Below, in pieces: positions 5,107 to 48,535 of a stretch of 64,000 nucleotides of DNA. Source of the stretch: an uncultured Gemmatimonadota bacterium. GTDB lineage: Bacteria; JAAXHH01. How positions within the stretch are numbered: position 1 is the first letter of the stretch; the number at the start of each line of letters is the position of its first letter. Both the position numbers and the translations under genes were made by a program. The DNA lies in contig OX638340.1 in the NCBI GenBank assembly GCA_951812955.1, positions 1,856,001 to 1,920,000 on the forward strand. Direction: 5' to 3'. The notes below the pieces were generated by a model. It was not told the DNA's origin. It did not search any database and worked only from the letters and a program-made list of their open reading frames with translations.

Positions 5107-5136
5107 GGAAGGTAGTCTGACAAGGCGGCCTGATAG

Positions 5137-6003: not shown

Positions 6004-6078
6004 GTATCGCGCATCTGCGTTGTTCGCGTAACAACCCGGATAACAAATCGTTACTACCTATGGAAAAGACGATTTGAC

Positions 6079-7086: not shown

Positions 7087-7148
7087 TACGATTGGAAGAT
7101 CGATACGATGCAGGCAGGATTCACGCCGTGCGATAGAGAAACAACATT

Positions 7149-8054
7149 ATGACACCCATCAATCCAGACTACGTCCGACTGGTGACATCCGATATCGGCA
7201 ACTTCTGGCGGGCATACGACCTGTCGGAAGGCAAAACTACAGAAGAAAAGATCGAAATCTACAATACGGAATACCTGGCTAGAGGTAGCATTGGTCTCCG
7301 GGATTTTGTAGATGCCAGAATCAAGAGCGCCGAAGAGTTGGTCAAGGCTGTTGAGACTATGCCGAAGTTCTATGCTTCTATCAGAGAAAGTTCGAATCGG
7401 GTTCTGGAGATGACAGATCGAATTCGAAGCTATATGCACAACTTCAAGGCCCTTTATGACGATGCGATATTCCCGGACGTGTACTTTCTGATTGGTAGAA
7501 TGAACAGTGGCGGAACAACCTCGCAGAACGGTCTGCTCATAGGGACTGAGATACTATGTCGAACAGACGATACACCCGAAGACGAACTTCCACAGGTGTA
7601 TCGGAAACTTATCAAACCAATAAACTACCTGCCCTATGTGGTTATTCACGAACTCATACATCCCCAGCAGAAGTACAATTTCGAAGGCAACAAGCTCCTG
7701 GGGGGTTCCATAATGGAAGGAGCGGCCGATTTTCTCGGAGAACTTGCCAGCGGAGGACTATTGAACGAGCATCAGCACGAATATGGACGAGTTCACGAAA
7801 CCGAGCTATGGGAAGCGTTTTCTGAAGATATGCTTCAGGATGATTGGAGAAAATGGTTCTATAACTACTCTGATAATACAGGCGATAGGCCTCCCGATAT
7901 GGGATATTACATAGGCTACAAAATATGTGAATCATACTACGAGAAGATGGACGACAAACGGCAGGCCATACGAGACATCCTGGCTGTCAAGGATGCAACA
8001 GACGCACTTCGATTCCTGACAGAAAGTGGATACGGTAAATCGGGCCATCCATGA
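7149..8054 (+). CDS. Putative Zn-dependent protease (DUF2268-like)
   Basis: HExxH motif (VVIHELIHPQQ). About 300 aa and the overall pattern resembles DUF2268 predicted metalloproteases. Confidence 0.6.
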   Translation: MTPINPDYVRLVTSDIGNFWRAYDLSEGKTTEEKIEIYNTEYLARGSIGLRDFVDARIKSAEELVKAVETMPKFYASIRESSNRVLEMTDRIRSYMHNFKALYDDAIFPDVYFLIGRMNSGGTTSQNGLLIGTEILCRTDDTPEDELPQVYRKLIKPINYLPYVVIHELIHPQQKYNFEGNKLLGGSIMEGAADFLGELASGGLLNEHQHEYGRVHETELWEAFSEDMLQDDWRKWFYNYSDNTGDRPPDMGYYIGYKICESYYEKMDDKRQAIRDILAVKDATDALRFLTESGYGKSGHP

Positions 8055-8072
8055 CTTCGACTTGCTCCTTGT

Positions 8073-9215
8073 TTGGCAATGAACGTGCTGCGGAATTGGA
8101 AAGGCAACATGAAATTAAAGTCCAATGAGTCTCTCGATCACCTGGTTCTGCAGCTGGAAGAACAGATCCCTCAGATTATGAGGGAAGCCAACGTTCCTGG
8201 TCTCTCGATCGCGTTGATACAGAATGTGGAAGCGGTTTGGACACATGGCTTCGGCGTAATGAACACGGAAACGCGTCAACCCGTGAAACCGGAAACCATA
8301 TTCGAAGGCTGTTCATTGAGCAAACCGATTTTCGCATATGCCGTGCTTAACCTCTGCGAGACGGGGATTCTGGACTTGGACAAGCCATTGTCCCATTACA
8401 GTCCTGATCCTTATGCGGCCGATGACCCCAGAGTTCAGATGATTACCATGCGACAAGCTCTTGCCCATACTTCCGGTTTACCAAACTGGCGCCCTGACTG
8501 CTGGGATTCAGAAGGATGGAATCCTGAAGGCAAACCTTTGCAAACCTATTTTGAACCCGGCGAACGTTTCAGCTATTCCGGTGAAGGATACATGTACGTG
8601 CAGCATGTGGTTGAGCATATTGCGGGTCAATCCGGCGAGTCTTATATGCAAAACGAGTTGTTCAATCCGGCGGGAATGGAGTTCAGCACGTATCTATGTA
8701 CATCGGATCAAGCCCCTGGTATGGCAACCGGGCATGATGAACACGGGCAACCGGTTAAAAAACAGATGTACAGGTCCATGTGTTCGGCCGCTAGCCTCCA
8801 TTCGACACCTTCGGACGTAGCTAAGATCTTGTGCGCCTGTATGCGACCCCGAACTGGTGCTTCCTGGCACATCAATGCCGAATTGGCGAAGGAAATGGCC
8901 ACCGCCCAGGTCCCGGTAAACGATTCTGCTTCGTGGCATGACAATTGGCCGGATGTCCCGGTAAAGGATGATCCCTTTGTTTCGTGGGGACTCGGTTGGG
9001 CTACTCAATACCATAATGGGCTAAAAGCTATCTGGCATTGGGGAGACAACGGTCCCTTCAAGGCATTTGCATTAGGGTATCCTGAAGAGGGAACAGGTTT
9101 AGTGGCCATGGCCAACGGATCAAATGGTTACAAGCTCTGGTCCGCGTTGTGCAGCATGGCATTGGGCGGAGAGTATCCCTGTATCGACTGGTTGGACCGG
9201 GTGGTGTATAGCTGA
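8073..9215 (+). CDS. Serine hydrolase, beta-lactamase/transpeptidase fold (class C-like/esterase)
   Basis: SxxK nucleophile motif (CSLSKPIF), YSG(E) second motif and WHWGDNG third motif. 380 aa. Start uncertain (alternatives at 8079 and 8109). Confidence 0.8.
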   Translation: MAMNVLRNWKGNMKLKSNESLDHLVLQLEEQIPQIMREANVPGLSIALIQNVEAVWTHGFGVMNTETRQPVKPETIFEGCSLSKPIFAYAVLNLCETGILDLDKPLSHYSPDPYAADDPRVQMITMRQALAHTSGLPNWRPDCWDSEGWNPEGKPLQTYFEPGERFSYSGEGYMYVQHVVEHIAGQSGESYMQNELFNPAGMEFSTYLCTSDQAPGMATGHDEHGQPVKKQMYRSMCSAASLHSTPSDVAKILCACMRPRTGASWHINAELAKEMATAQVPVNDSASWHDNWPDVPVKDDPFVSWGLGWATQYHNGLKAIWHWGDNGPFKAFALGYPEEGTGLVAMANGSNGYKLWSALCSMALGGEYPCIDWLDRVVYS

Positions 9216-9322
9216 TTGCGGGATACTAGTTCGAGACATTGAAGCCTCCGTTTTTGAGCGTAGTGAATTATGCCGTGCTGTAAAGTGGTCTCCAAATACT
9301 GCCTAAATTCAAAGTTGAAACA

Positions 9323-10087
9323 ATGGAAGAATCCCCTGATCGTCCAGTCGCGCTGGTTACAGGCGTGAGCCGAAAAATAGGCATCGGTGCAGCAATCTCT
9401 CTGGCCTTAGCCAAAACAGGTTGGGACGTGGCCACTTCTTACTGGCAACCGTACGATGCTTCCATGCCATGGGGTAGCGACGATACCGAAGCCGGAAAAA
9501 TCACTGATCAGATCCGTGGCTTCTCCGCAAGGACGGTTTCCATTGAAGCCGACCTTTCAGACACCGCGTCACCGAAGCGTATTTTTGATCGTATCGAAAG
9601 TTCACTTGGATCAGTAACCGCTCTAGTTATGGCTCATTGTCATTCGGTAGACAGCAGCATTAAGTCCACCACAATCGAGAGTTTCGATTTGCATTTTACT
9701 GTAAACGCTCGAGCTACATGGCTGCTGATCCGGGAGTTCGGGAGACGTTACCGAAATGAATATGGGCGGGGCCGTGTTATCTCGATAACCAGCGATCATA
9801 CTACGCACAACTTGCCTTACGGGGCCAGCAAAGGAGCCATGGATCGGATCGTCCTCGCGGCAGCGCAGGAATTCAGGGAACTGGGAGTCACGGCAAATGT
9901 TATCAATCCGGGTGGAACAGACACGGGTTGGATGTCGGATGATCTGAAGGAACGCGTACAAAGTGAGACACCGTTGGGCCGAATCGGCTTGCCTGCAGAC
10001 TGTGCCTGTCTTGTCAGTTTCCTCTGTTCCGAAGAGGGTGAATGGATCAACGGCCAGTTAATTTACAGCAATGGCGGTGTTCGGTAA
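9323..10087 (+). CDS. SDR-family oxidoreductase
   Basis: Rossmann motif TGVSRKIGIGAAI and catalytic YGASKGA (YxxxK). 254 aa. Confidence 0.85.
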   Translation: MEESPDRPVALVTGVSRKIGIGAAISLALAKTGWDVATSYWQPYDASMPWGSDDTEAGKITDQIRGFSARTVSIEADLSDTASPKRIFDRIESSLGSVTALVMAHCHSVDSSIKSTTIESFDLHFTVNARATWLLIREFGRRYRNEYGRGRVISITSDHTTHNLPYGASKGAMDRIVLAAAQEFRELGVTANVINPGGTDTGWMSDDLKERVQSETPLGRIGLPADCACLVSFLCSEEGEWINGQLIYSNGGVR

Positions 10088-10216
10088 GGATATGGTCGTT
10101 GAAACAAGCGGCACATGCATTCCGCTTAACAGAAGGGTTTGCGTGGCGGAGATTCACTCTGGGCTCGCAATGCACGAGTTTCCGTAAGAATAAGATCAGT
10201 CCGAGAGGCCCAATGT

Positions 10217-10744
10217 ATGAAATGGGACTATTACCGTCCTCATATAGACCGAAGAGTCCCGGGAAACAAAGTTGACCTGACTCCCTTGTGTAACGAATCC
10301 GAAGTTCGCAGGAACCTGATCCTGGATCTCGCCCGTCCCTTCCGCAACGTCGATCTGGACAAGGTAGCGAGTCCGGAATCGTTGGGATTCATCCTGGGCA
10401 GTGCGGTAGCCCAAAAGCTGAACAGGGGCTTCATTCCATTTCGTAAAGGGGGAGAACTACCCATCCATCGTCAGCACAGGTCGAGGGTCTCTTTTGTAGA
10501 CTATACCAGTGAGCGGAAATCCCTGGAGGTAAACAAAGACCTTATTCAACCTGAGGAACGCATTCTGATCGTGGATGATGTGATAGATACAGGTGCCCAG
10601 GTAACGGCCATGATTAAGTTGATCGAACGTCTACGTGGCGAAGTCGTTGGTGCTTCGGTACTTGTCGCCGACAGGAGCCCGAGAACAGCTCGTCTCATAG
10701 ACAAGTACAACGTACATGCTATCTATATGCCCATCATCGATTAA
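10217..10744 (+). CDS. Type I phosphoribosyltransferase (adenine PRTase-like)
   Basis: PRPP-binding loop ILIVDDVIDTGAQV and APRT-like GFIPFRKGGELP. The ORF opens at 10139, but the ATG at 10217 (MKWDYY) gives a typical length. Confidence 0.75.
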   Translation: MKWDYYRPHIDRRVPGNKVDLTPLCNESEVRRNLILDLARPFRNVDLDKVASPESLGFILGSAVAQKLNRGFIPFRKGGELPIHRQHRSRVSFVDYTSERKSLEVNKDLIQPEERILIVDDVIDTGAQVTAMIKLIERLRGEVVGASVLVADRSPRTARLIDKYNVHAIYMPIID

Positions 10745-10917
10745 ATGGGCACTGCGGAGACGGAGACAAGCCCTTCCGGAAAACCATCTGGTCAAAGGCT
10801 CGGATGAGATTCAGATTGTTAACGTCGTTTCACTTGCATCAACGCAGAGCAGCATCGAAGGCGTAAAACGGATGTCGCAGGCATCTTTAAACAAAAACAT
10901 TCCGCAGGTATCTGAAA

Positions 10918-11367
10918 ATGTCCACCGAATCTGATAAACAGCGCGTATACAACGGTGCGTATGGTTTGTGTCGTGACCCATCAGACCGCTTGCTCCTGGT
11001 TCGTGTAACAAGCGGATTGGCGGATGCCGGACTATGGACATTGCCTGGCGGTGGTATCGAATGGGGAGAGCACCCGGAAGACGCTTTACTTCGGGAATTG
11101 GAAGAAGAGACAGGCATTGTGGATATTGAAAGGTATCGGTTGGCTGCGGTTTATTCCCAGGTGTATGATAATCCGGCATATCGGGCGGACGACTCGGTAC
11201 ATCACATTGGATTGGTCTACGATGTTACGCTCGTAGCGTTCAGCCTCAGGGACGAAAAAGACGGTTCGACTGATCACTGCGAGTGGTTTACCGAAAGTCA
11301 GGCTCGACTATTGCCGCTTGGGCAACTGGGTGAATTTGGCGTCGAACTGGCTTGGCCAAAATCATGA
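10918..11367 (+). CDS. NUDIX hydrolase
   Basis: Canonical Nudix box GGGIEWGEHPEDALLRELEEETG. Confidence 0.85.
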   Translation: MSTESDKQRVYNGAYGLCRDPSDRLLLVRVTSGLADAGLWTLPGGGIEWGEHPEDALLRELEEETGIVDIERYRLAAVYSQVYDNPAYRADDSVHHIGLVYDVTLVAFSLRDEKDGSTDHCEWFTESQARLLPLGQLGEFGVELAWPKS

Positions 11368-11390
11368 TACGCTCACAAAACTAGAATGGC

Positions 11391-11765
11391 GTGAAACAAA
11401 CAGGTGCGCTAATGACACGAGCTCCGATTAAAGAACCCATCGCATTCGAAGACTTCGAAAAACTCGACATTCGGGCCGGTACGATCACTTCGGTCCGGGA
11501 AGTGGCCAATTCGAACAAGCTCATGAAGCTGGTTGTCGACTTCGGTGATCACACCCGTTCAATTCTGGCCGGAATAAAGAAGGAACGTGCAAACCCTCAG
11601 GAAATCGAAGGTAAGCAAGCACTCTTTTTGCTGAACCTGGCCGACAGGAAAATGGCAGGCGAGATTTCGCAGGGAATGCTCTTCGATATCGGCTATGCGG
11701 ACGGACTTACCCCGTGCCTCCTGGTACCCGAAATGCCTGTGCCAGATGGCGCGCGGGCTGGATGA
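11391..11765 (+). CDS. tRNA-binding domain protein (CsaA/EMAP-like)
   Basis: About 120 aa. FEKLDIRAGTITSVREV...KLMKLVVDFGD...ILAGIKK...GEISQGMLF matches the OB-fold tRNA-binding domain pattern. Alternative ATG at 11412. Confidence 0.75.
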   Translation: MKQTGALMTRAPIKEPIAFEDFEKLDIRAGTITSVREVANSNKLMKLVVDFGDHTRSILAGIKKERANPQEIEGKQALFLLNLADRKMAGEISQGMLFDIGYADGLTPCLLVPEMPVPDGARAG

Positions 11766-11846
11766 AAAGTGCCTTCTTGGGATGGTAGGTAGTAAAGATT
11801 GAGATTAGGGTTGTGCCAGTCTGGTCTGGCACCAAGGACGGGCATC

Positions 11847-12650
11847 ATGAATCAACCATTCGATGAAGCGGTAGAGGCCATTATAACCGGGGACGCAGCC
11901 ACCCTGACGAAGCTGTTGGTGGCACATCCCGATCTCATCAAGGCCCGGTCCCGGTCCGATCACAAGGCGACCCTGCTGCACTATGTGGCTGCCAATGGCG
12001 TCAAGGACGAGCTGCAAAAATCGCCGGAGAATGCCGCGGAAATCGCCCGGATACTGCTCGAGGCCGGGGCGGAGGTCGACACCCTCGCCGAAACATACGG
12101 TGGGGGCACGAACCAGACGACGCTATGCCTGCTGGTTTCCAGTATACATCCGGCGGCAGCGGGTGTGCAGCCGGCGCTGGTGCAGGTTTTATGTGATGCG
12201 GGCGCGGCTGTTAACGGAGTCGCTGATGACGGGGCGCCACTGGGAACCGCGTTGCTGTTCAGCTATAGGAAGTCGGTCGATATGCTGGCGAGGTGCGGCG
12301 CGCGCATCGATAATCTGCTTTTCGCCGCCGGCGTGGGCGACCTCGCGAGGGTGAAGTCCTTTCTCCACACAGACGGCCGGCTAAGACCCGAGGGGATGTA
12401 CCATGGGTCCCATCTCCCATCCCCTGCCGATGAGAAGTCACAGGTCGACCTGGCATTCGGCCTGGCCTGCTATCACTTGAGGATCGAAGTGATCCGGTTC
12501 CTCCTTGAAATGGGCGTGGATGTCAATGTTCGTTCGAACATTTTCGGTAGCATGCAAACCGGTCTATACTGGGCAACCCACGGTTTCCATACGGAGGAAG
12601 AGGAGCGCCCTGTCGTTGCGTTTCTGCAGTCACAGGGTGCTACCTCGTAA
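11847..12650 (+). CDS. Ankyrin-repeat protein
   Basis: Repeated ankyrin-like units (ATLLHYVAANGV...IARILLEAGAEVD; ...LVQVLCDAGAAVN; ...VIRFLLEMGVDVN). ATG at 11847 preferred over the TTG at 11799. Confidence 0.65.
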   Translation: MNQPFDEAVEAIITGDAATLTKLLVAHPDLIKARSRSDHKATLLHYVAANGVKDELQKSPENAAEIARILLEAGAEVDTLAETYGGGTNQTTLCLLVSSIHPAAAGVQPALVQVLCDAGAAVNGVADDGAPLGTALLFSYRKSVDMLARCGARIDNLLFAAGVGDLARVKSFLHTDGRLRPEGMYHGSHLPSPADEKSQVDLAFGLACYHLRIEVIRFLLEMGVDVNVRSNIFGSMQTGLYWATHGFHTEEEERPVVAFLQSQGATS

Positions 12651-22433: not shown

Positions 22434-23024
22434 TTACACGACGTTCCGAGACTGGGTATCCGAGGCGTTCCAGCAAGTCTCGATCACATTAAAATCAGGT
22501 CGGGACAGGACAACGTAGGAAGGGAGTCCCAACTGTTTCCACATCGCGAATGGGTCCTGGCGAGTAATGCGGCTCACATACAGGCTCAGAACGGTCCCAT
22601 GGGTAATGAGCGCCAGGTCTTCTTGCGGAAATCGTTCTAACAGTCCGTCGACGGACTTTGAGAATCTTCTGTACGCTGTATCCGCGGTCTCCTCGCCAAA
22701 AACCAGCTCCGCAGGTTGAGCGTAGAAACGGCTGATCGACTGCTCAAAGCACTCCTTCTCCAGGAAACCGACACTCCTACGCTCATGTTCCTGCAATCCC
22801 TCGATGACTTCTACCGGAACATTCAGTCTGTGCGCTGAAATATTGGCTGTTTCTATGGCTTTAGGTTCGTTGCTACTGAATATCATATCCAGATTATACG
22901 GTCCCAGTTTCTCAGCCAAGATCCGGGAGCGGACTTGACCTTCTTCAGACAAACGCCATTCCCTGGAAGGAACCGCAGGATCGATCTCAGGCAACGAATG
23001 CTTCACCAGAACCAGTACCGGCAT
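22434..23024 (-). CDS. Histidine phosphatase-family protein (PGAM/SixA-like)
   Basis: N-terminal LVLVKHSLPE (RHG-like with the catalytic His kept), SSNEPKAIETA and a distal LITHGTV. AAGGAGG lies 10 nt upstream of the ATG. Confidence 0.65.
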   Translation of the reverse strand: MPVLVLVKHSLPEIDPAVPSREWRLSEEGQVRSRILAEKLGPYNLDMIFSSNEPKAIETANISAHRLNVPVEVIEGLQEHERRSVGFLEKECFEQSISRFYAQPAELVFGEETADTAYRRFSKSVDGLLERFPQEDLALITHGTVLSLYVSRITRQDPFAMWKQLGLPSYVVLSRPDFNVIETCWNASDTQSRNVV

Positions 23025-23046
23025 CCTTTCGGTACCTCCTTCTATA

Positions 23047-24153
23047 CTACGGCGTATTCACCGGAAAGTGCTTGATCATTCTGATGATCTTCAACTCTGT
23101 TCCCGACGGCATCTCCGAACTACCATGGTGCAGTTGTCGAAAGCCGTTTTTCTCGTAGAACTCCACGGCTGCAAGCGAAGAATTGAGTACGATACGCTCC
23201 GCGCCTGCGCGCATGGCCTGGCATTCCGCTGTTCTGTAAAGTGCCGAACCGACTCCTTTTTTACTCGCCCTGCCGGAAACGAAAACCGCGGCATTGTACT
23301 CAGTACCCTTTGCCCGATGCACCTCGGAGAATCCCAGTAATCCCGTGGCATCTTCGGCCACATAGATTGTCGCTCCCTGCGCAACGGCACCAAGGTACTT
23401 CTCTCGAGATATCGGAGCGATCCACTCCTCGAGAACCTCCATGGCGTAGTAAGGTCCGCAATGGGATCTTATCGATTCTTCGTGTATGATTGCTAGTTCG
23501 TCAAAGTCGGCCTCAGTCGCGCGGCGGACACAGTAGGAGCGTTTAGCCATTTCGACCATCTGCGTGAGTGCGCGGGGATGCTGGTGGTTTTCGAGCGCTT
23601 TTAAAACCCGTGCGGAAGCGTCCTCCGGTGCTTCGGCGGAAGTATCCACCTCGACGTCATAGACCGCGTACCTGTGCACCTGTTCGTACTGGTTTCTCGC
23701 CAGGCCTATAGTCCGATCTCCCCTCGCGACTTCCCTTCGTTCCAATTCATCGAGCGGACAGAAAACCTTCACAAACAGCACATCGAAAGGGCTGAGAATT
23801 TTCACACGATGACGTAACAGATCCAGGACATCGAACTCTTGCCCTGCCGGCAGATGCTGAGGTGGAGCGATAACATCGTCGACGATCACATTGTTACCGC
23901 TGCGGGCCAAGGCCGCGATGCACTCCGCAAACCCCATCTCGAAGTAACGGATGTCGGGGACCAACCCGCGCTTGATCTGTTTGCGCGAAGGAATCTCGTC
24001 GAACAGGTTGATGGAAAAATAGAGGAACGGTTCCTGCAGCACGTCGAGCAACGCCTCAGCCAGCGTCGTCTTCCCAGCGCTCGACGATCCATTGAGATAA
24101 ATCACACTGCCGCTGCGACTAGGGGTTTTCAAGTGCTCAACGTGGGATTTCAT
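23047..24153 (-). CDS. Fusion protein: chloramphenicol-phosphotransferase-like P-loop kinase + GNAT acetyltransferase
   Basis: The N-terminal half matches the CPT family (IYLNGSSSAGKTTLAEAL...VIVDDV...). The C-terminal ~160 aa is GNAT (AAVFVSGRASKKGVGSALY...FYEKNGF). The ORF opens at 24177 (TTG), but the ATG at 24153 forms an ATGA overlap with the upstream stop. Confidence 0.75.
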   Translation of the reverse strand: MKSHVEHLKTPSRSGSVIYLNGSSSAGKTTLAEALLDVLQEPFLYFSINLFDEIPSRKQIKRGLVPDIRYFEMGFAECIAALARSGNNVIVDDVIAPPQHLPAGQEFDVLDLLRHRVKILSPFDVLFVKVFCPLDELERREVARGDRTIGLARNQYEQVHRYAVYDVEVDTSAEAPEDASARVLKALENHQHPRALTQMVEMAKRSYCVRRATEADFDELAIIHEESIRSHCGPYYAMEVLEEWIAPISREKYLGAVAQGATIYVAEDATGLLGFSEVHRAKGTEYNAAVFVSGRASKKGVGSALYRTAECQAMRAGAERIVLNSSLAAVEFYEKNGFRQLHHGSSEMPSGTELKIIRMIKHFPVNTP

Positions 24154-24761
24154 TCTGAAGTCCATTCGCTGGGCCAACTTCCGAGTCGTCGTTCAAAGTA
24201 CAGTTCTAAACCGTCCTCTTCATCAATATGTGAGCCGATTTCCCGAAATCCCATCGACCGAGCCATGCCCAGGGATGGGATGTTACCTGGGTTGATAGAC
24301 AGGACGAAACAACGTTGACCATGTTCTTCATACGCCCATTTCATCAACGCAAGCGCCGCTTCGTTGGCGATGCCCCGTCTGCGGAAGGGTTCTCCAATTT
24401 CGTAGCCGAGTTCTACCCCATCTGCCGCTACATTTCGCAGATCCTCGGGACCGGGCTCGGAGTGGAAGCCGATCCGACCACACATAGTCTGTGACTGTTG
24501 AATGACTATGGCCCGCAACAACCAGGGCTGTACCTCTGGACTGGCATTGAGTTGTCTTAGCCGATTTCGTAAAGTACGGGTGTTGAGAACAAGGTCTATC
24601 GGAATCTTAAAGCCGGCGATCTTCTCTGCCAGCAGTTGATTCCGGGCTATCAACGCTTCCAGCAGTCGCGGGGCCATCGGAACCAATTCCAGCCGACGTG
24701 AGGTAATGATGTGGATTATTGGCTGTTCTCCGTTCGTCACCAGTGTTACAGAGAGGAACAA
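24150..24761 (-). CDS. GNAT N-acetyltransferase (RimJ/RimL-like)
   Basis: ITSRRLELVPMAP N-terminus typical of the RimL-like subfamily, plus GYEIGEPFRRRGIANEAALALMKWAYE. The exact start is uncertain (TTG at 24761). Confidence 0.75.
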   Translation of the reverse strand: MFLSVTLVTNGEQPIIHIITSRRLELVPMAPRLLEALIARNQLLAEKIAGFKIPIDLVLNTRTLRNRLRQLNASPEVQPWLLRAIVIQQSQTMCGRIGFHSEPGPEDLRNVAADGVELGYEIGEPFRRRGIANEAALALMKWAYEEHGQRCFVLSINPGNIPSLGMARSMGFREIGSHIDEEDGLELYFERRLGSWPSEWTSE

Positions 24762-24826: not shown

Positions 24827-26245
24827 CTACTCCCTGATTCCACACGCCTCGTCCGTCAGCACGTCGTAGTGATGTATGTACTTGACGCCGTCGATCACGA
24901 GCCGATCGGTTTGTGGTAGATCCTCCTCCCACGTCATTTCGACTCCCTGCAAATGGGGTGGCTTCTCCCGCTTGCCCCAGTGATTGCCGTTGTAGCGCCG
25001 GAACAGCAGCGTGCGGCCAGCGCGGGTGACGTACGCCATGACCAACACCGCTCGTTCGGACGTATCTTCGTCGATATCGAAAACCCGCATGCATTCGAAT
25101 GTCCGATCGCCGATGCACACCGTGTAGAGGCCCTGTGAAAACACCAGCGGCGCATCCGATTTCTTAATGAACGTTCCATCCGGTTGTTCCGTCAGGTAAT
25201 CCCGGTCTTCGACCAGACGGGGCGTCATCCCGAAATCCCATCCAAAGTCCTCGTCCAGGCAGGTCAGAAGTTCCCTGGTTCCATCGGATTTCATGCTCTC
25301 GACGGCCAGCCAATGCACCTCCGTCTCTTCCAGGCGGCCCCAGACCCGGGTATGGCGATCCCTCGTTTCCGGATCATGGTTGAGCGTTAGGAGACCCTCC
25401 CGGTCTGGACGGCGTTGTTCATCCATCTCGATCTCTACGCATGGTCTTCCGTGTATGATGGCGCGCCGCGTTGCAACCATGTCCTTGACCTCGGTTAACT
25501 TCCAGGCCGAACCATCCCGCGTAGGCTCGTAATCCGCCCATCGGACCTGATCACCGATTTCGGGTACGATGAACCACCAGGACAGCTCCCGAAGATCTAT
25601 GGAAAATGGAGTTGCCGTACTTATCTCGATGGATATATCGGGCCGGTAATTGGGAAAGGGTACAGTCGTAGCTTTTGTGTCGTCGCTCATGGCCATGCTC
25701 CTTCTATTGGTGGTTACACCCAGTTCGATTCGAACCATGTCCCGTCCGTGAGACAGCCGCCGCTCGATGGTTCCCGGTGGGCAGCGATGACGGGCCGCAA
25801 TTTCCGCTATGCTCAATCCATCCAGGTAGAACGACCTCAGGGCCGCTTGTTCCTTATCGGGCACGTGATCGAAGGCTTCGACCACATCCTTCGCTGCCCG
25901 CCGTTGACGGGCCGTCGGCACACCGAATCGATTAATCATCGTTGCCAGTTCCTCGGAATCGACGAAGCGCTCTCGCCGTTGTGTAGAGCGCATGAAGTCG
26001 ACGCAGCGGTTGCGCGCAACCTGGTACAGCCAGGCGCGCACGTTTCTCGGTGATCGAACACGCAACCCCAACCAGGCATGAACGAGCGTCTCCTGTAGCA
26101 CGTCCTCTACCGCCTCCACCGACCCGATACGATCCCGGATCAATGCGGCCAGAGATCGCTCGTAGCGCCGGATCAGGGCCACGAAGGCCCGTTCGTCGCC
26201 GGTCCGGATCTGTTGAACAAGTACCTGGTCACTGAGGAACCCCAT
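24827..26245 (-). CDS. ECF-type sigma-70 factor with ~280-aa C-terminal extension of unknown function
   Basis: Region 2 (FVALIRRYERSL...DVLQETLVHAWL...WLYQVARNRCVDFMR) and region 4 (FYLDGLSIAEIAARHRCPPGTIERRLSHGR) lie within the first ~185 aa. The remaining ~285 aa are soluble with no TM segment and no family I recognise. Confidence 0.8.
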   Translation of the reverse strand: MGFLSDQVLVQQIRTGDERAFVALIRRYERSLAALIRDRIGSVEAVEDVLQETLVHAWLGLRVRSPRNVRAWLYQVARNRCVDFMRSTQRRERFVDSEELATMINRFGVPTARQRRAAKDVVEAFDHVPDKEQAALRSFYLDGLSIAEIAARHRCPPGTIERRLSHGRDMVRIELGVTTNRRSMAMSDDTKATTVPFPNYRPDISIEISTATPFSIDLRELSWWFIVPEIGDQVRWADYEPTRDGSAWKLTEVKDMVATRRAIIHGRPCVEIEMDEQRRPDREGLLTLNHDPETRDRHTRVWGRLEETEVHWLAVESMKSDGTRELLTCLDEDFGWDFGMTPRLVEDRDYLTEQPDGTFIKKSDAPLVFSQGLYTVCIGDRTFECMRVFDIDEDTSERAVLVMAYVTRAGRTLLFRRYNGNHWGKREKPPHLQGVEMTWEEDLPQTDRLVIDGVKYIHHYDVLTDEACGIRE

Positions 26246-26425
26246 TAGATCGTTCTCCCTTCATCTAACAGGGCGATGTTGGCGGGGGAAAGGTTCACGG
26301 AGTTTGGAAAAGGTGACTACGTGGAGTATTGGAATGAAGCCATGAGGTACGGTCAGTTTGGCTTCTTCTGACTGAGGTGGAATAGGCTTCGTATCAGCTT
26401 ACCCCAGGATGAAAGACCAGCGAAC

Positions 26426-26785
26426 TCACCCAGATCCTGCTACAGGCCAATCAGCACCAGCCCCTGGTCCGATAACATGCCAATGCATGTGTGGCGTAAC
26501 TCCTGGCGCCGCCGCATTGGCACGCACATAGAATCCCCTGCCATCCAGCAGACCGGTGGACTTTGCAGTCTGCTGGACAGCACGCACCATGGAAGAGAGC
26601 AGATCCCCATCCAGGGCGGCCTCATCCATAAGCCCAGCAACGTGGGTTTTAGGTACCACTACCACATGGACCTGGGCTACGGGTCGCGGGTGGCGGAACG
26701 CCAATACCAGATTGTCCTCATAAATCCGTTTCACGTCGAGCTTTCCTGAGAATACATCCTCGCAATACCAATCTCGTCGCGCCAT
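26426..26785 (-). CDS. HIT-family protein
   Basis: Histidine-triad motif HMHWHVI. 119 aa. Confidence 0.85.
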   Translation of the reverse strand: MARRDWYCEDVFSGKLDVKRIYEDNLVLAFRHPRPVAQVHVVVVPKTHVAGLMDEAALDGDLLSSMVRAVQQTAKSTGLLDGRGFYVRANAAAPGVTPHMHWHVIGPGAGADWPVAGSG

Positions 26786-26832
26786 ATACTTCCCACTTTC
26801 CCGAACCTAAGGTGCAGACACTTGGATCGCCT

Positions 26833-26871
26833 TAATCATAATCATTAGATGTAACACTGATTAGATGTTAA
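26833..26871. promoter_or_regulatory. AT-rich repeat cluster in the HIT/GNAT divergent intergenic region
   Basis: (TAATCA)x2 at 26833-26844, then ATTAGATGT exact at 26844-26852 and 26860-26868 (16-nt period). Confidence 0.3.
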
Positions 26872-26947
26872 TTTACATTAAAACCAGGAATCCCGTTTAA
26901 GGTTTTATATAGCAATATTCCAGACTAGCCATATTGGATTCAACACC

Positions 26948-27427
26948 ATGCGGAACAAACAGGAATTGATTCGAATCGAACCCCTTGAGACGAAACATCA
27001 TTGCGGGATCCTCGAAATCGTAGAGCGTCTCCCCGAGTGGTTTGACGAAACCGCACGAACAAAGTCTGTCCCCACCGACTTGCGGCATCAGCTCGGTTAT
27101 GTAGCCGTCTCAAATCATAGGGTGGTCGGATTTGTCACCCTATACGTTACAGAGGGTCGGTTGCATATCGGCTGGCTTGGGGTCGAAAAGGAGTTACAGC
27201 GGCAGGGACTGGGCAGTCGGCTTTTGGGAGCGGCGGAATCGAAAGCTCTACAGATGGATATAGACCAACTCGCAACATATACGCTGGGTGACAGCGTCAC
27301 GTACCAACCCTACGAGGTGACGCGGAATTTCTACTGGAAGCACGGATTCAAGGTCTACAAGCGATCCAGGACAGACAACCCCGGATGCCCTGAAGAAATC
27401 TGGATCTCGAAGCAGGTCAAACCATGA
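26948..27427 (+). CDS. GNAT N-acetyltransferase
   Basis: Acetyl-CoA-binding motif VEKELQRQGLGSRLL and C-terminal FYWKHGF. 159 aa. Confidence 0.75.
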   Translation: MRNKQELIRIEPLETKHHCGILEIVERLPEWFDETARTKSVPTDLRHQLGYVAVSNHRVVGFVTLYVTEGRLHIGWLGVEKELQRQGLGSRLLGAAESKALQMDIDQLATYTLGDSVTYQPYEVTRNFYWKHGFKVYKRSRTDNPGCPEEIWISKQVKP

Positions 27428-27539
27428 AATGCATCCACCAAAGCGTTCATTGGTAGAAACGAAAAGACGAAACTCGGCATTTCGGAAGCCTGCGTCTCGC
27501 GAAGAATGTAATTGAACAGGTGTTTTCCCGGAGTTCAGC

Positions 27540-28346
27540 GTGGACCGTGACGTAATCCAATACTACGAAGAGCTTGAGAACGAATCCGATCGCCTGGATA
27601 GGGGTACCGCCCGGTTGGAAAGCGAAAAGACCAGGGAGATCCTTCGGGAATACCTCCCCGCACCGCCGGGTCGCATCCTCGACGTGGGCGGCGGTCCGGG
27701 CGCTTACGCCTTCTGGCTGGCAGAGCAGTCCTATGAAGTCCATTTGGTGGACATTGTCCCGCTCCACATCGAGCAGGCAAAGGAACGCGATAAAGACGGA
27801 ATCTTGAAAAGCGCGGAAATCGGCGATGCCAGAAACCTGGACTTCGAGACTGATTCCATGGACGCGGTCCTTCTATTGGGACCGCTGTACCACCTTCCCG
27901 AGCGGCCGGACAGGCTCGCGGCGCTTGAGGAATCCCTTCGCGTGCTGAAACCGGAGGGAGTCCTTTTCTGTGTAGCCATTTCCAGGTTCGCTTCGCTCCT
28001 GGACGGTATGAGAAAGGGATACCTGTTCGATCCGGTGTTTTCCAGGATAGTCCTGAAAGACCTGGTCGAAGGGCGCCACGAAAACCCGGACATGGATCCA
28101 CGCTACTTCACCACGGCCTGCTTCCATCGGCCTGAAGAACTCGAAGAAGAGATCACGGACGCGGGGTTCGAACTGTTAAAGACGTCAGGCCTGGAAGGGC
28201 CGGCGTGGCTTCTCGGCGATTTCGACGACCTGTGGGCAGACGAGACCAAGCGCAAGGAATTGCTCACTTTCCTGAAGCTGGTCGAGACGGAAACCTCGCT
28301 CATCGGCGTGAGCGCGCACATCCTTTCAGTAGCGAAAGCGCCTTGA
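27540..28346 (+). CDS. Class I SAM-dependent methyltransferase
   Basis: Motif I ILDVGGGPGAYA, followed by VDIVP and LKPEGVL motifs. Confidence 0.8.
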   Translation: MDRDVIQYYEELENESDRLDRGTARLESEKTREILREYLPAPPGRILDVGGGPGAYAFWLAEQSYEVHLVDIVPLHIEQAKERDKDGILKSAEIGDARNLDFETDSMDAVLLLGPLYHLPERPDRLAALEESLRVLKPEGVLFCVAISRFASLLDGMRKGYLFDPVFSRIVLKDLVEGRHENPDMDPRYFTTACFHRPEELEEEITDAGFELLKTSGLEGPAWLLGDFDDLWADETKRKELLTFLKLVETETSLIGVSAHILSVAKAP

Positions 28347-28415
28347 ATGTGCTGGCATCCCGTGAAGTGTTCTAAACTACCTTAACGTGCCGTCCGTTTC
28401 TTAGAGACCAAAACC

Positions 28416-29108
28416 TTGTCCATCTCAGCAATCTCATTCGATGGCGACATGACACTTTGGGACTTTCAGAAGGTCATGCGCCATTCATTAAAAAAAGCTC
28501 TGGCAGCACTTCGCGGGCTGGTTCCGACCCAACGCGCTGTGGACCTTTCCGTGGAGGAAATGATTGCGATTCGCGGTGAGGTCGAAGAAGAAGTGAAGGG
28601 CAGGATCTGGAACCACGAGGAAATCAGGCGGCTCTCCTTCGAGCGGACACTCGAAATCATCGGCCGCCCGGATCGTGAAATCGCTGCCTATCTCAATAAG
28701 GTATACCTGAAACACCGTTTCGAAGACATCGAATTGTATCCCGACGTCATCCCTACTTTCGATGAACTGGCACCTCATTACAAGCTGGGTCTGCTGTCAA
28801 ACGGAAACAGTTATCCGGAACGCTGTGGGTTGGAGGCACGTTTTGCCTTTGTCATCTTCTCGCAGGATGTACAAATTAGGAAACCAGACCGGAGAATCTT
28901 CGAGATAACCGCGCAGAAAGCGGGCTGCCCATTGGAGGAGCTGTTGCACGTAGGGGATTCTCTGAAAAACGACGTCGCTGGGGCGAATGCAGCAGGCGCA
29001 CGATCGGTCTGGTTGAATCGCGACAGTCAGGCAAGTCACTCTGGGTTCGCGGCGGAATTTGAAATCGCTACATTGGCCGACCTTCCAGCAGTTCTGGAAA
29101 ATGACTGA
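28416..29108 (+). CDS. HAD-superfamily hydrolase
   Basis: DxD motif FDGDMTLWD, a LLSNG motif and C-terminal GDSLKNDV. Confidence 0.8.
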   Translation: MSISAISFDGDMTLWDFQKVMRHSLKKALAALRGLVPTQRAVDLSVEEMIAIRGEVEEEVKGRIWNHEEIRRLSFERTLEIIGRPDREIAAYLNKVYLKHRFEDIELYPDVIPTFDELAPHYKLGLLSNGNSYPERCGLEARFAFVIFSQDVQIRKPDRRIFEITAQKAGCPLEELLHVGDSLKNDVAGANAAGARSVWLNRDSQASHSGFAAEFEIATLADLPAVLEND

Positions 29109-29180
29109 TTTGGGGCAGATTGTTCAAATCACGCTTGGAAGTACAGATATGCACAATTGGGTATCGGAAAGGAGCTTCAT

Positions 29181-29972
29181 ATGATCATCCACAAACTGGT
29201 CGCAGCCACTTGCATGATCGGTCTGGGAATGTACGGCTGTTCCTCTTCAGAGATTCCTGAGGACCCGCCGGTCCAGACCGAGCAGGTCGCATGGGGATAC
29301 GGTGACGAGAACGGACCGGACGTCTGGGGCCAGTTAAGCCCGGATTTCGCCTTATGTGCCGAGGGATCGCTGCAATCTCCGATCGACCTTGCGAATGCCA
29401 CGTCGTCGGAACTTCCCGAAATCGTCTTCAACTATAGTCCGTCGGCGGTGAATATCCACCATAACGGCCACACGATTGAAGTGGCGCCCACCGGGGAAAA
29501 CTCGATTGAGATCGATGGTGTACGTTACGCGCTTCTGCAGTTCCATTTCCACGCTCCGAGCGAGCACTCGGTGGACGGCCGGTTATTCGACATGGAAATG
29601 CACCTCGTGCACCGGAACGAAGAAGGCACCCTGGCAGTTATCGGAGTTCTGATCGAGCAGGGCGCCGACAATGCGACGTTCGGTCCCCTGTGGACGAATA
29701 TGCCGGACACGCCCGGCGTAACGAACAGCGTAGAGAACGCCACCGTTGATGCCGGCGACTTGCTGCCGGGCGACAGGCAGACCTATCGCTATGACGGCTC
29801 GTTGACTACACCGCCGTGTTCAGAAGGTGTCAAATGGAACGTGCTGACAACGCCCATTGAACTGTCCGAACCGCAGATCGCCGCTTTCAAAGCAGTTGTC
29901 CATGACAACAATCGGCCGGTACAGCCGCTGAATGAGCGTGAACTGCTTTCGGATGGTGCTGGAGAAGGCTAG
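29181..29972 (+). CDS. Alpha-class carbonic anhydrase, probable lipoprotein
   Basis: QSPIDL, zinc ligands in QFHFHAPSEH and EMHLVH, and GSLTTPPCSEGV. Lipobox-like LGMYGC. AAGGAG lies 6 nt upstream of the ATG at 29181; the ORF opens at 29157. Confidence 0.9.
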   Translation: MIIHKLVAATCMIGLGMYGCSSSEIPEDPPVQTEQVAWGYGDENGPDVWGQLSPDFALCAEGSLQSPIDLANATSSELPEIVFNYSPSAVNIHHNGHTIEVAPTGENSIEIDGVRYALLQFHFHAPSEHSVDGRLFDMEMHLVHRNEEGTLAVIGVLIEQGADNATFGPLWTNMPDTPGVTNSVENATVDAGDLLPGDRQTYRYDGSLTTPPCSEGVKWNVLTTPIELSEPQIAAFKAVVHDNNRPVQPLNERELLSDGAGEG

Positions 29973-39815: not shown

Positions 39816-41063
39816 TCAGATCAACTCCATGTATTTCAGCGACTTGCGGTATAGATCCAACGTCTCGTCGTATTGGGCGTGACGACCCTCGGCAACGATC
39901 TGTTTTCCCGCGACCGAGACGGATCTCACCGCCCGCGGCGTGGCGCCGAAGAGGATGGCGTCAGGAGCGTGATCGGGATCCATGGCAGCAATGGATGGAT
40001 CGTCGGGATCCAGGTGGACATGATCATCCCGCCAGGATTCATCCAGACCGCAGGCCGCGTATCCCAGTCTCGTAGCCGCGTCAAGCAGCACCTGCGCCTC
40101 AGCCACTGTATGCCGCTTCTCCAGCCGTGACCGCTCGTCCAGCTCCACGGCCCGGATTTCCTCGAAGGCGTTCTCGCATGAGTGGCTGTCCACGCCCACG
40201 CAGAGGTGGGTTCCGGCCCTGAGCAGCTCGGCCGCGGGCGGGAGCCCATCGCCGAGATCTCTTTCCGTGGTACGACAGATGCACACCATGCACTTGTAGT
40301 CTCCCAGCGCTTCGATTTCACCTTCATCGAGATGCGTGGCGTGCACGGCCACGAACCGCGGGGACAAGACACCTTCATTGGTAAGTAACGCGACGGGCGT
40401 GGTCCCGTATTCAGACCTGCATGCTGCAAGCTCGGCCCGTTGTTCGCAGACGTGCATGTGGTATGGAAGTTCATGTTCTTCGGCGTAGGCCGACAGAATG
40501 CGGATATCGGGGAGGGGCACGGCCCGAATGCTGTGGGCGGCCACGGCCACGGAGACGTCGGAATCATCCGCGTAGCGCGATCTCAGCACATCGAGATCCC
40601 TTAACACGTCATCGATCGACGGGTCGATGAACCGTTTCTGCGCCGGTACCGCGGACCGCCGGTAACCTGCTCTCAGGTAGGCGGTACGGATCAGGCAGAT
40701 ACGCAGGCCGACATCCCTGGCAGCACGCACGACTGCATCCGCCAGTTCGGTGCGGTCTGCATAGGGACGCCCCCCGGGACCATGATGCACGTAATGGAAC
40801 TCACCGACGGCCGTAACCCCGGACATCGCAAGTTCGGTATAGGCGAACCGCGCGATCGCGTACAGGTCATCCGGTCGGAGCCTTTCGACCAACCGGTACA
40901 TCTCGTCCCGCCAGCCCCAGAACGTGCCCGCGCGGGTCGCGCGGCGCTGGGTCCGCCCACGAAGCGCACGCTGGAAAGCGTGGGAATGGGCCGTAGCGAG
41001 ACCGGGCATGACCCAGTGGCCTTCTTCGTATTGAACGGAAGGCAGGTTATTCCCGGAATTCAT
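39816..41063 (-). CDS. hutF: Formimidoylglutamate deiminase
   Basis: HutF-specific blocks: HSHAFQRALRG, FWGWRDEMYR, GEFHYVHH, AAHSIRAV, HMHVCEQ, AVHATH, ERDLGDG and GVDSH. ATGA overlap with hutI. The N-terminus looks about 30-40 aa shorter than the Pseudomonas HutF I recall. Confidence 0.8.
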   Translation of the reverse strand: MNSGNNLPSVQYEEGHWVMPGLATAHSHAFQRALRGRTQRRATRAGTFWGWRDEMYRLVERLRPDDLYAIARFAYTELAMSGVTAVGEFHYVHHGPGGRPYADRTELADAVVRAARDVGLRICLIRTAYLRAGYRRSAVPAQKRFIDPSIDDVLRDLDVLRSRYADDSDVSVAVAAHSIRAVPLPDIRILSAYAEEHELPYHMHVCEQRAELAACRSEYGTTPVALLTNEGVLSPRFVAVHATHLDEGEIEALGDYKCMVCICRTTERDLGDGLPPAAELLRAGTHLCVGVDSHSCENAFEEIRAVELDERSRLEKRHTVAEAQVLLDAATRLGYAACGLDESWRDDHVHLDPDDPSIAAMDPDHAPDAILFGATPRAVRSVSVAGKQIVAEGRHAQYDETLDLYRKSLKYMELI

Positions 41064-42343
41064 GGGTTCAACACCTGCCCGTTCTTGATCACGGTATGCA
41101 CCGGGTTTCCGCCAAAGAAATAGGGTATGTGGCGGTAATCGGCCTCGTTCAGAATCAGTATATCGGCCCGCTTGCCGACTTCAATGGAACCGGTCCGGTC
41201 CCCCTGGCCGATGGCGAAAGCCGCGTTGATGGTGGATGCGTTCAGCGCTTCCGCGGGGGTGAACCGCTGGTACCTGCAGGCTATGGCCATGACCGTGGGC
41301 ATGGATGGACAGGGTGCCGAACCGGGATTGAGGTCGGTGGCGAGGGCTACGACGGCGCCGGCTTCCATCATTGCCCGCCCATCGGCGTAATCTGCCATAC
41401 CTAGGTTGAAGTTCACCGCCGGTAGCAGGACGGCGATCGTGTCCGAGCGGGCCAGCGATTCGATCGCCTCCCGGCCCGTCACATCGAGGTGGTCCACCGA
41501 GGCGGCGCCGAGTTCCATGGCCATGGCGACTCCGCCGAAATCGTTGAACTGGTCCACGTGCATCTTCGCTTTCAAACCGGCATCAATCCCGGCCTCCAGC
41601 ACCCGCCGGGACTGGGCGAGATCGAATGCGTGGTCTTCGCAGAACACGTCGACGTGCAAGGGAACTTCGCGATCCGAGAAGCGCGAGGACTGGTACCAGG
41701 CCGCCGCTTCCGGCAGGATCTTCTCGATCACGCACCGTGTATACGCTTCGGAATCTCCCTCGAATTCCGGTGGCACCGCGTGAGCGCCCAAAAAAGTGGG
41801 CACGATGTCGCAGGGATGGTCCCGGTCTAGCTGTTCGATGACACGCAGCATCTTCAGTTCGTCGGGAGCGCTCAGACCGTAACCGGTCTTGATCTCCACG
41901 GTCGTTGTGCCCAGTGCGAGCATCTCGTCGAGACGGGTGGAAGCGGACGATACGAGTTCGTCCACGGTTGCGGCCCGCGTGTACCGGACCGTATTCACAA
42001 TTCCCCCGCCTGCAGCCATGATCTCCAGGTAGGAAGCCCCCTTGATCCGCATCTCGAATTCCGCGGCGCGGGCTCCGCCGAAGACCGTGTGGGTGTGGGC
42101 GTCTACGAAACCGGGACAGAGGGATCTCCCACGGCAATCTATCGTGCGCTTGCCCGCGTACCTGCCATCCAGGTCCTCGGCCGGTCCGACCGCCGCGATC
42201 ACCCCGGCCTCTACCGCCACCGACCCGTGCTCGATCATGTGCACCGAGGCCATGTCCGAACCGCGCCGAGGTGTCCCGGGCGACCGTGGCGTGCAGGTCA
42301 CGACCTGATCCGCGTTGTGGAGGTAAAGATCGACGGGTTTCAT
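41060..42343 (-). CDS. hutI: Imidazolonepropionase
   Basis: PGFVDAHTHTVFGG and GGGI motifs, and the overall amidohydrolase pattern of HutI. Sits in hut context. Confidence 0.9.
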   Translation of the reverse strand: MKPVDLYLHNADQVVTCTPRSPGTPRRGSDMASVHMIEHGSVAVEAGVIAAVGPAEDLDGRYAGKRTIDCRGRSLCPGFVDAHTHTVFGGARAAEFEMRIKGASYLEIMAAGGGIVNTVRYTRAATVDELVSSASTRLDEMLALGTTTVEIKTGYGLSAPDELKMLRVIEQLDRDHPCDIVPTFLGAHAVPPEFEGDSEAYTRCVIEKILPEAAAWYQSSRFSDREVPLHVDVFCEDHAFDLAQSRRVLEAGIDAGLKAKMHVDQFNDFGGVAMAMELGAASVDHLDVTGREAIESLARSDTIAVLLPAVNFNLGMADYADGRAMMEAGAVVALATDLNPGSAPCPSMPTVMAIACRYQRFTPAEALNASTINAAFAIGQGDRTGSIEVGKRADILILNEADYRHIPYFFGGNPVHTVIKNGQVLNP

Positions 42344-42408
42344 ATGCCCGCTCGATGAAAGATGGGTGGTCTTGTCGGTCTCGGAGGTTTCATTGCGGCG
42401 CCGGCGTT

Positions 42409-42444
42409 AAAATGTCAAAAGAAAGGGCCCGAAGCTCGTTGCCC
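42409..42444 (-). terminator. Hairpin plus U-rich tract between hutH and hutI (possible attenuator or partial terminator)
   Basis: Minus strand reads GGGCAACGAGCUUCGGGCCC, with GGGC/GCCC and CGA/UCG pairings, followed by UUUCUUUUGACAUUUU. Starts 15 nt after the hutH stop. Confidence 0.3.
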
Positions 42445-42459
42445 AACTTGCGGTACGTC

Positions 42460-44049: not shown

Positions 44050-44065
44050 CCGATTCCTTCCGGGT

Positions 44066-45715: not shown

Positions 45716-45808
45716 ACCTGAACTTACGCGTTCCTTTCACGGTTCTTCCACTCTTCGTGGGCTAAACCTGAACTTACGCGTTCCTTTCACGGTTCTTCCA
45801 CTCTTCGT
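45716..45808. repeat. Exact 43-bp direct duplication (45716-45758 and 45766-45808) separated by 7 nt
   Basis: The two copies are identical base for base when read from the sequence. The right copy holds the last 32 nt of coding sequence, the stop codon and 8 downstream nt of the RraA-like gene. The left copy abuts the hutU GTG start. Confidence 0.95.
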
Positions 45809-47330: not shown

Positions 47331-47359
47331 CTGCCGCGGCAAACGCGCGATGTAATCGT

Positions 47360-48453: not shown

Positions 48454-48535
48454 TGTCTTCCTTTCCAGGTCTTACGTGTGTACCGACTCTTCAAACGCGC
48501 GATCTGCAACCCGCGGGCGAATGAAACCGGTCGGG

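Follow-up and report, generated by a model that had tools for sequence, protein, structure and literature searches.

Sigma factors of extracytoplasmic function (ECF) make up the third major mode by which bacteria transduce signals, and how those without a recognisable anti-sigma factor are kept under control is an open question on which the locus described here bears. Within a 64,000-nucleotide stretch of an uncultured Gemmatimonadota genome (contig OX638340.1 of assembly GCA_951812955.1, positions 1,856,001 to 1,920,000; the whole stretch is hereafter the window), a minus-strand gene encodes a 472-residue protein in which an ECF sigma core continues into a long C-terminal extension. An earlier note, made from the letters of the sequence, had taken this extension for a soluble domain of unrecognised family and suggested that it could be an undescribed type of cis-acting sensor. 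Our best reading, to which we assign a probability of roughly 0.55, is that the gene joins an autoregulated ECF sigma factor to the cytoplasmic regulator cognate to it and probably gives rise to free regulator as well. An ECF sigma factor carrying a regulatory extension is a well-known kind of system; the partner domain is here all-beta and uncatalogued.

A sigma core joined to an uncatalogued all-beta domain

The gene and the parts of its product are arranged as follows, in window coordinates:

26255..26261, minus strand: Shine-Dalgarno (SD) sequence AAGGGAG of the full-length start; orthologues keep GATGAAGGGAGAGCGATCTxATG
26245-26243, minus strand: full-length start codon
24827..26245, minus strand: open reading frame (ORF) of the sigma-domain fusion, 472 amino acids plus stop codon, from the ORF listing
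25973..26176, minus strand: sigma region 2 (residues 24-91), containing the motif ARNRC81xD83xxR86
25742..25885, minus strand: sigma region 4.2 (residues 121-168), Pfam PF08281 at E 1.2e-9, also PF04545
25691..25720, minus strand: linker (residues 176-185), poorly conserved at the protein level in a 65-sequence alignment (A1) and disordered in the structural model
24830..25690, minus strand: C-terminal all-beta partner domain (residues 186-472)

The N-terminal part is an ECF (group 4) sigma-70 factor, with region 2 (Sigma70_r2, PF04542, residues 24-91) and region 4 (Sigma70_r4_2, PF08281, residues 121-168) both recognised and region 3 unmatched in the Pfam scan. The sigma70-ECF model TIGR02937 spans residues 20-172 with 74.9 bits against a cut-off of 42.9, no specific equivalog in the NCBIfam scan reaches its own cut-off (the planctomycete/verrucomicrobial sigma model TIGR02989 scores 70.8 bits, below its cut-off of 124.6), and fold searches match the core to sigmaE, SigW and SigK. 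Both peptides quoted in the earlier note are found in the 472-residue translation, so that its description of an ECF sigma factor with a C-terminal extension stands; region 4 ends at about residue 175 rather than at the ~185 given there, and the segment that it delimited, 24830-25678, corresponds to residues 190-472 of a conserved domain that starts earlier, at Met186 (window position 25690). The extension is also soluble and devoid of transmembrane (TM) segments, as had been proposed, the maximum mean Kyte-Doolittle hydropathy over 19 residues being 0.75 in the whole protein.

The 287-residue extension (residues 186-472) on its own has no match in Pfam or NCBIfam at E<=1 and, searched as a single sequence or as a profile, no sequence match in the PDB save one chance-level pilin profile match, in agreement with the earlier impression that it belongs to no recognised family. 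Across 42 diverse members of the domain no Pfam (at E<=0.1) or NCBIfam family recurs. It is nevertheless anything but an isolated sequence: an extension-only search at E<=1e-3 yielded 129 clusters, of which 120 were listed, and almost every one of these is a protein of 455-486 residues with the same sigma-plus-extension architecture (extension identity from 95%, for the best homologue, down to 45%), which places the feature far beyond chance. Conservation in the 65 sequences of A1 extends over their full length (66% identity per column on average). Among species-representative genomes a scan recovered 71 loci, nearly all as one in-frame alignment running from sigma through extension, the exceptions being one extension-only match (L071) and three partial alignments (L032, L033 and L070).

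That the long ORF could be an assembly or sequencing artefact joining two genes, a possibility raised in the earlier note, might seem worth entertaining in that relatives with two genes (see below) differ by a one-base frame shift at an ATGA overlap, where a single indel could fake a fusion. The in-frame fusion recurs, however, in 66 independently assembled orthologues, complete long-read chromosomes included, and the architecture is common to more than 100 clusters and 69 genome loci, leaving such an explanation with practically no likelihood.

Nearly all of the 71 loci of the genome scan come from metagenome-assembled genomes, assigned to Latescibacterota, 'Gemmatimonadetes', Spirochaetia, Pseudomonadales/Azotimanducaceae (Gammaproteobacteria) and Binatia, so that at least four phylum-level lineages appear among the labels of the close family. 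Many of their bin names (APA_, IRC_, COS_, RHO_, SB06xx) resemble, in our reading, those of marine-sponge microbiome projects; together with the spread over lineages this suggests habitat-linked dissemination, possibly by horizontal transfer. Beyond the close family, an exhaustive search with an extension-only profile (A2) produced 443 representative clusters at 50% identity, comprising fused proteins of 415-470 residues in which the domain starts at residue 160-200, and free proteins of 250-285 residues matched end to end. In the distant fused forms, too, the N-terminal part is an ECF sigma core; nothing in Pfam matches the free forms. Clostridia from the gut and elsewhere are very rich in relatives (4299 matches at E<=1e-20 among 8000 scored candidates), and the names given include Oscillospiraceae, Acutalibacteraceae and Eubacteriales.

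To gain insight into its fold we used AlphaFold2 on the full-length protein with the 65-sequence alignment. The predicted extension consists of ~16 beta strands (predicted local distance difference test, pLDDT, mostly 85-95), opens directly with strands and includes only two helices of four residues each (334-337 and 439-442). It follows a linker predicted to be disordered (residues 178-193, pLDDT <50) and a sigma core in which region 2 is confident and region 4 is not (pLDDT of 46-69), the predicted template modelling score being 0.59 overall. Given that an extension-only model from 22 sequences was poor (pLDDT 62), fold searches were carried out with the full-length model. Foldseek, which the earlier note had recommended for the extension, agrees with an all-beta domain and gives weak open-barrel neighbours in the PDB, headed by the YmcC-like BF2203 (E 2.4e-4) and followed by BDI_3050, LolA3, nitrobindin and LolA, at TM-scores of 0.36-0.43; a carotenoid-binding protein and the sigmaE-pathway regulator MucB/RseB are also among the fold neighbours. 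In these models the likeness to the LolA/YmcC/RseB open barrels is weak and at the level of fold class only, and it suggests a cavity for a hydrophobic ligand. Of the sensor domain proposed earlier, the soluble C-terminal domain is supported, and a sensing function is hinted at by this weak fold resemblance. A family-wide metal or redox site was also considered, as the window clade conserves H265, C269, C385, H431, H458 and C468, and was dropped because none of the six holds without exception in the set of 42 diverse members.

Fused and split relatives and their conserved putative promoter

The relation between domain and sigma factor is best seen in relatives where the two are separate. Two free forms with usable contigs (L074 and L076) immediately follow an ECF sigma gene of ~180 codons on the same strand; P0024, another candidate stand-alone form, was rejected as its gene call is cut by the contig end. 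When metagenomes were scanned with a profile built from free forms (A4; A3 was too diverse for a locus scan), 397 relatives were found, and 80 loci fetched from these were combined with 5 earlier ones and classified with our own hidden Markov models (HMMs) of the sigma core and the domain:

Fused: 60 of 85 loci
Split, with the sigma gene immediately upstream: 18 of 85 loci (gaps of -4 to +95 nt between the sigma reading frame and the first matched domain residue)
Too near a contig end to judge: 5 of 85 loci
No adjacent sigma gene: 2 of 85 loci

Of the last two, L098 does carry an ECF sigma gene ~0.5 kb upstream, albeit one without the partner-type signature motif described below. The extension is a module dedicated to ECF sigma factors, with which it associates near-exclusively, either fused or as the next gene. 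In split loci a minimal sigma factor of ~180 residues is followed by a domain gene of ~260-280 residues, joined by an ATGA overlap or a gap of 2-12 nt, with the SD sequence of the partner inside the 3' end of the sigma gene; as judged from the junction sequences, this is classic translational coupling at the position usually held by an anti-sigma factor. The cis-acting domain of the earlier note hence describes the fused form well, and a purely cis role does not hold, in that many relatives encode the domain on its own, in the gene that directly follows a minimal sigma factor. Furthermore, the free forms have neither signal peptide nor TM segment (median per-protein maximum 19-residue hydropathy of 0.98), which places the domain in the cytoplasm.

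Additional free copies occur beside fused genes. At five loci (L049, L052, L057, L061 and L069) a free paralogue of 273-278 residues, at about positions 4556-5350 of the locus, immediately precedes the fused gene on its strand and is 31-34% identical to the window extension. Two further arrangements were observed. L022 carries tandem fused genes (5428-6807 and 8170-9558, ~1.3 kb apart) whose products share 66% and 53% identity with the window protein, and at L072 (1300-2124, free form P0122) a short in-frame stretch ahead of the gene's start is still matched by the final part of the sigma HMM (segment residues 58-80) and may represent a decayed sigma gene or an alternative arrangement.

Upstream of the fused gene, one further element is conserved:

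26272..26297, minus strand: putative autoregulatory ECF-type promoter, with -35 TGAACC(TTT) at 26297-26292 and -10 (T)CGCC at 26276-26272

The upstream regions of the orthologues are unrelated save for the block (C/G)TGAACCTTT-N13-CGCC(T/C)TG, which is followed by the SD sequence and the start codon. Searched as TGAAC[CT]T[TC]-N13-15-CGCC on both strands of 12.8-kb loci, the motif is found exactly once in almost every locus, on the correct strand and 50-80 nt upstream of the sigma start. At distant loci TGAACCTTT-N13-CGTC stands upstream of the sigma gene in 33 of 60 distinct regions; the background for an equivalent length is 0.019. With 'AAC' in the -35 and 'CG(T/C)' in the -10 element, the sequence found at nearly all loci has the features by which autoregulated ECF promoters are recognised, and it would accordingly be a candidate target of the sigma factor that it precedes. 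At four of the loci with an upstream free paralogue (L049, L057, L061 and L069) it lies upstream of that paralogue and not of the fusion, an order that implies an operon running from free domain to fusion; the case is weaker for L052, where the only copy is ~590 nt upstream of the paralogue. Both tandem fused genes of L022 are preceded by a TGAACCTTT...CGCC motif of their own. The window itself holds a second match to the relaxed pattern, TGAACCTTCATGCAGTGGACTACCGCC at 62325-62351 on the plus strand, which sits inside the first codons (ATGAACCTTCAT..., MNLH...) of an ORF extending to 63958 and was treated as a chance occurrence rather than a promoter.

The sigma cores that partner the domain also share a signature. 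A cysteine occupies the position of C81 in ARNxCxD, in region 2.4, in 60 of 74 partner sigma factors, which speaks for co-evolution of sigma and domain, and none of 5 unrelated sigma factors at the same loci fits the motif. C81 stands two residues ahead of DXXR, the motif that reads the -10 element in one characterised ECF factor, and we therefore prefer to see in it the mark of a group of co-evolving sigma factors and not a redox switch.

An autonomous function for the domain has to be weighed against these arrangements. It could be a cargo or effector, for instance a cytoplasmic carrier of hydrophobic molecules whose expression is driven by the sigma factor, with fusions as an incidental by-product of tight coupling; its fold neighbours LolA, nitrobindin and the carotenoid-binding protein are carriers, and the one promoter copy that each locus was found to have serves just the genes for sigma factor and domain. 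Incidental fusions should nonetheless be rare and short-lived, while 60 of 85 loci, the majority, are fused, and within clades the fused form is ancient; there is little sense in tethering an effector to RNA polymerase, and the domain hardly ever occurs apart from a sigma factor. We hold such a role to be quite improbable.

A putative ribosome-binding site and second ATG within the fused gene

If fused genes derive from coupled pairs, does anything of the second gene's own start survive? At the junction of the window gene two elements are found:

25698..25703, minus strand: internal SD-like sequence AAGGAG, 7 nt upstream of the Met186 codon and made up of rare AGA/AGG arginine codons
25688..25690, minus strand: internal ATG (Met186), putative start of a free 287-residue domain

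The junction DNA reads AAT AGA AGG AGC ATG GCC ATG. Met186 is invariant in A1 despite the variable linker around it, and its place in the alignment is that of the start codon in the free genes and in the downstream genes of split loci. Across 66 fused orthologues the junction ATG is present in 65, at a spacing of 6-10 nt, and an SD-like tetramer at -16 to -5 likewise in 65 (18% at 1104 other ATGs of the same genes); for an SD pentamer the corresponding figures are 63 of 66 and 7.4%. The amino acids at the junction vary (RRS, RRG, PRS, KRK) around a constant purine-rich hexamer. Codon usage provides the most stringent control: the codon of linker Arg182 is AGA or AGG in 66/66 genes in which these codons make up 14.9% of all arginine codons. 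Among other conserved arginine columns the AGA/AGG share is 0-18% at 32 of 33; the remaining column, at 56%, is R324 in the beta domain (window 25274-25276; alignment column 347 of the orthologue set). Elsewhere in the orthologues SD-like pentamers come from GAG-GAG (Glu-Glu) and are explained by protein constraint. In Clostridia-type fused genes the junction KGE..M is encoded as AAAGGAGAA-N6-9-ATG, and SD and ATG are both retained in 37 of 42 distinct junctions.

From the conservation of the internal SD and ATG, and from AGA/AGG codons in 66/66 genes against 15% overall, we infer that the fused mRNA probably also yields the free 287-residue domain from Met186. The fusion protein could instead be the sole product, with the internal SD and ATG persisting as a relic of two ancestral genes or serving as a translational pause site that aids folding of sigma region 4 ahead of the emergence of the beta domain. 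Split forms with the same SD and ATG do exist and are likely ancestors, and SD-like pentamers occur elsewhere in these genes at Glu-Glu codons. A relic would be expected to decay, yet the Arg182 codon is kept without exception across genes only 41-94% identical at the protein level to the window protein, the ATG is retained at its spacing in 65/66, and the same arrangement recurs in the distant Clostridia-type clade with other linker residues; for a pause site the ATG would be unnecessary. The single-product alternative thus retains a real though minor chance of being correct, and we continue with the reading in which both products are made.

Proposed control and comparison with known systems

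Nothing beside the gene offers another candidate for its control: conserved-neighbour analysis revealed neither a neighbour common to the whole family nor an anti-sigma-like gene next to it. Nearby in the window are genes for a HIT protein, three GNAT acetyltransferases, a chloramphenicol-phosphotransferase-like/GNAT fusion, a histidine phosphatase, a SAM methyltransferase, a HAD hydrolase, an alpha-carbonic anhydrase and a MacB/FtsX-type permease, so that a patchwork of small-molecule-modifying enzymes flanks the sigma gene (22434-24761 and 26426-29108); the sigma promoter motif is absent upstream of these flanking enzyme genes. Gene order partly recurs in the closest loci (L001-L017), and synteny is confined to clades. 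The carbonic anhydrase (29157-29972, plus strand) is of the eukaryotic (alpha) type, PF00194 at E 7.8e-43, and the GC fraction of the window varies from 0.50-0.52 at 6001-12000 to 0.62-0.65 at 40001-56000.

These data are consistent with a model where an ancestral pair of coupled genes would have become one ORF by loss of the sigma stop codon, while the ribosome-binding site and ATG of the partner were kept under selection. The resulting mRNA would most likely give two products, the 472-residue sigma-domain fusion and the 287-residue domain from Met186. The domain, by its model a curved all-beta sheet or open barrel of LolA-like kind, would control the sigma factor through direct contact, most probably by holding regions 2 and 4 inactive, in cis in the fused copy and in trans in the free one; a signal bound by the domain, plausibly a hydrophobic small molecule, would lift this inhibition, and the released sigma factor would turn on its own promoter, TGAACCTTT-N13-CGCC, along with a wider regulon. 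That the domain is a regulator, and most likely an inhibitor, is suggested by its coupled position directly after the sigma gene in split relatives, by the absence of any other regulator, by the need of a self-activating sigma factor for a brake, and by the extra free copies supplied by the internal start and by upstream paralogues.

The sign of the effect could also be the opposite, the extension being an obligatory positive module without which the sigma factor is inactive, and which helps the sigma factor to bind RNA polymerase or to open the promoter, perhaps once a partner or ligand is bound. A precedent lies in the ECF42 TPR extension, which a review of extension-bearing ECF factors reports as essential for activity, and in the ECF41 extension, part of which is needed for the active conformation according to the same review; strict co-occurrence and co-evolution of sigma and domain, moreover, fit an activator as well as an inhibitor. 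Against it, an autoregulated sigma factor with a positive partner only would be brakeless, a translationally coupled position right after the sigma gene is a hallmark of anti-sigma factors, and the extra free copies are easier to explain as a stoichiometric excess of inhibitor. We therefore consider a positive module unlikely and favour an inhibitory regulator.

In its widest form the proposal is that one ORF gives rise to an ECF sigma-regulator fusion and, via a conserved internal ribosome-binding site, to free regulator, and that the all-beta, LolA-like domain represents a widespread and undescribed class of cytoplasmic, non-helical ECF regulators acting both in cis and in trans in response to a hydrophobic intracellular ligand, with thousands of members from sponge symbionts to human-gut Clostridia. 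Taken as a whole we advance this only tentatively, at somewhat less than even odds. The partner domain is well delimited and absent from Pfam, NCBIfam and the PDB, naturally split and fused versions permit a direct test of regulation in cis versus in trans, and the defined cognate promoter can be used in reporter assays. A conserved internal start, if true, would be an uncommon means for one ORF to fix the ratio of sigma factor to regulator; the abundance of the family in human-gut Clostridia and sponge symbionts means that signal and regulon could be ecologically relevant, and an orthogonal set of sigma factor, promoter and regulator could serve synthetic circuits.

How does the system compare with those already described? 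The ECF classification paper lists 19 groups with C-terminal extensions, and the later review counts 26 ECF groups with N- or C-terminal extensions, 15 of them unstudied. Defining features of the described extension classes compared here (SnoaL-like, TPR, Cys-rich, ZAS plus TM, WD40-like), a match to any of which would by the earlier note have refuted its proposal, are all missing from the window protein. Like ECF41 (e.g. M. tuberculosis SigJ) and ECF56/205/294/295, it has no anti-sigma gene and carries a soluble, cytoplasmic C-terminal domain of a fold type associated with ligand binding; in ECF41-type factors the SnoaL-like extension is thought to regulate sigma regions 2 and 4 in cis, as summarised in the review. 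Unlike those groups, it shows no SnoaL_2/NTF2-like Pfam match at E<=1, and its modelled fold is all-beta with ~16 strands. Neither does it resemble ECF42, given the lack of a TPR match and the near absence of helices from the extension, or the ECF238/CorE-like, ECF287 and ECF288 factors, whose tails are Cys-rich and short (~20-40 residues, with CxC or CGxxGxGxCxC motifs), in contrast to an extension of 287 residues over which three conserved cysteines (C269, C385 and C468) are scattered, none of them invariant across the 42 diverse members.

ECF57 of planctomycetes shares some features. Its members have long WD40-like extensions and two conserved cysteines, in sigma regions 2 and 4 (review), and the window clade likewise combines a beta-rich C-terminal extension with an invariant C81 in region 2 and a near-invariant C155 in region 4. 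C155 is, however, absent from the distant members inspected, and ECF57 was dropped as a lead since there is no WD40 or beta-propeller Pfam match and no propeller among the fold matches. The Tt-TolB anti-sigma was followed as a lead and proved unrelated, being a membrane protein with a TolB propeller. An overlap with ECF262, an uncharacterised extension-bearing group whose reference protein in the review table is SFB89493.1 of Ruminococcus albus, or with another catalogued but uncharacterised group, is plausible, as R. albus belongs to the Clostridia, where relatives of the present family abound. The "undescribed" of the earlier note applies in so far as the domain is unlike the described extension classes compared, and an uncharacterised catalogued group may already list relatives. 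A literature search, outside which many subscription papers lay, turned up no ECF partner of this fold and no internal start in a sigma-regulator fusion.

With the LolA/LolB/RseB/YmcC superfamily there is no sequence or HMM similarity, and the structural alignment covers about half of the window domain. RseB is periplasmic and binds the anti-sigma factor RseA and lipid-like ligands, not the sigma factor itself. RseB/MucB and the LolA/LolB/YmcC-like proteins are all periplasmic, whereas the window domain is cytoplasmic.

Fusions offer a further parallel in arrangement. In IutY of Pseudomonas putida (ECF243) and in ECF48/52/53, as here, a sigma factor is fused to a product that is a neighbouring regulatory gene in relatives. 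The extensions of these proteins consist of an anti-sigma domain or a zinc finger with TM helices and are activated by regulated proteolysis, while the window domain is soluble, with no TM segment, no helical anti-sigma domain and no zf-HC2 or RskA match. More generally, no anti-sigma family in Pfam or NCBIfam is matched by the extension or by the 42 diverse members, and no helix of at least four residues precedes residue 334, unlike in the class I anti-sigma ASD with its 3-4 N-terminal helices. Finally, the family reproduces the logic of canonical sigma/anti-sigma operons in its gene order, in the ATGA coupling of split relatives and in a putative self-promoter with -35 'GAAC' and -10 'CG(T/C)C'; it departs from them in the partner, where the customary ASD, ZAS or TM segment is replaced by an uncatalogued all-beta domain.

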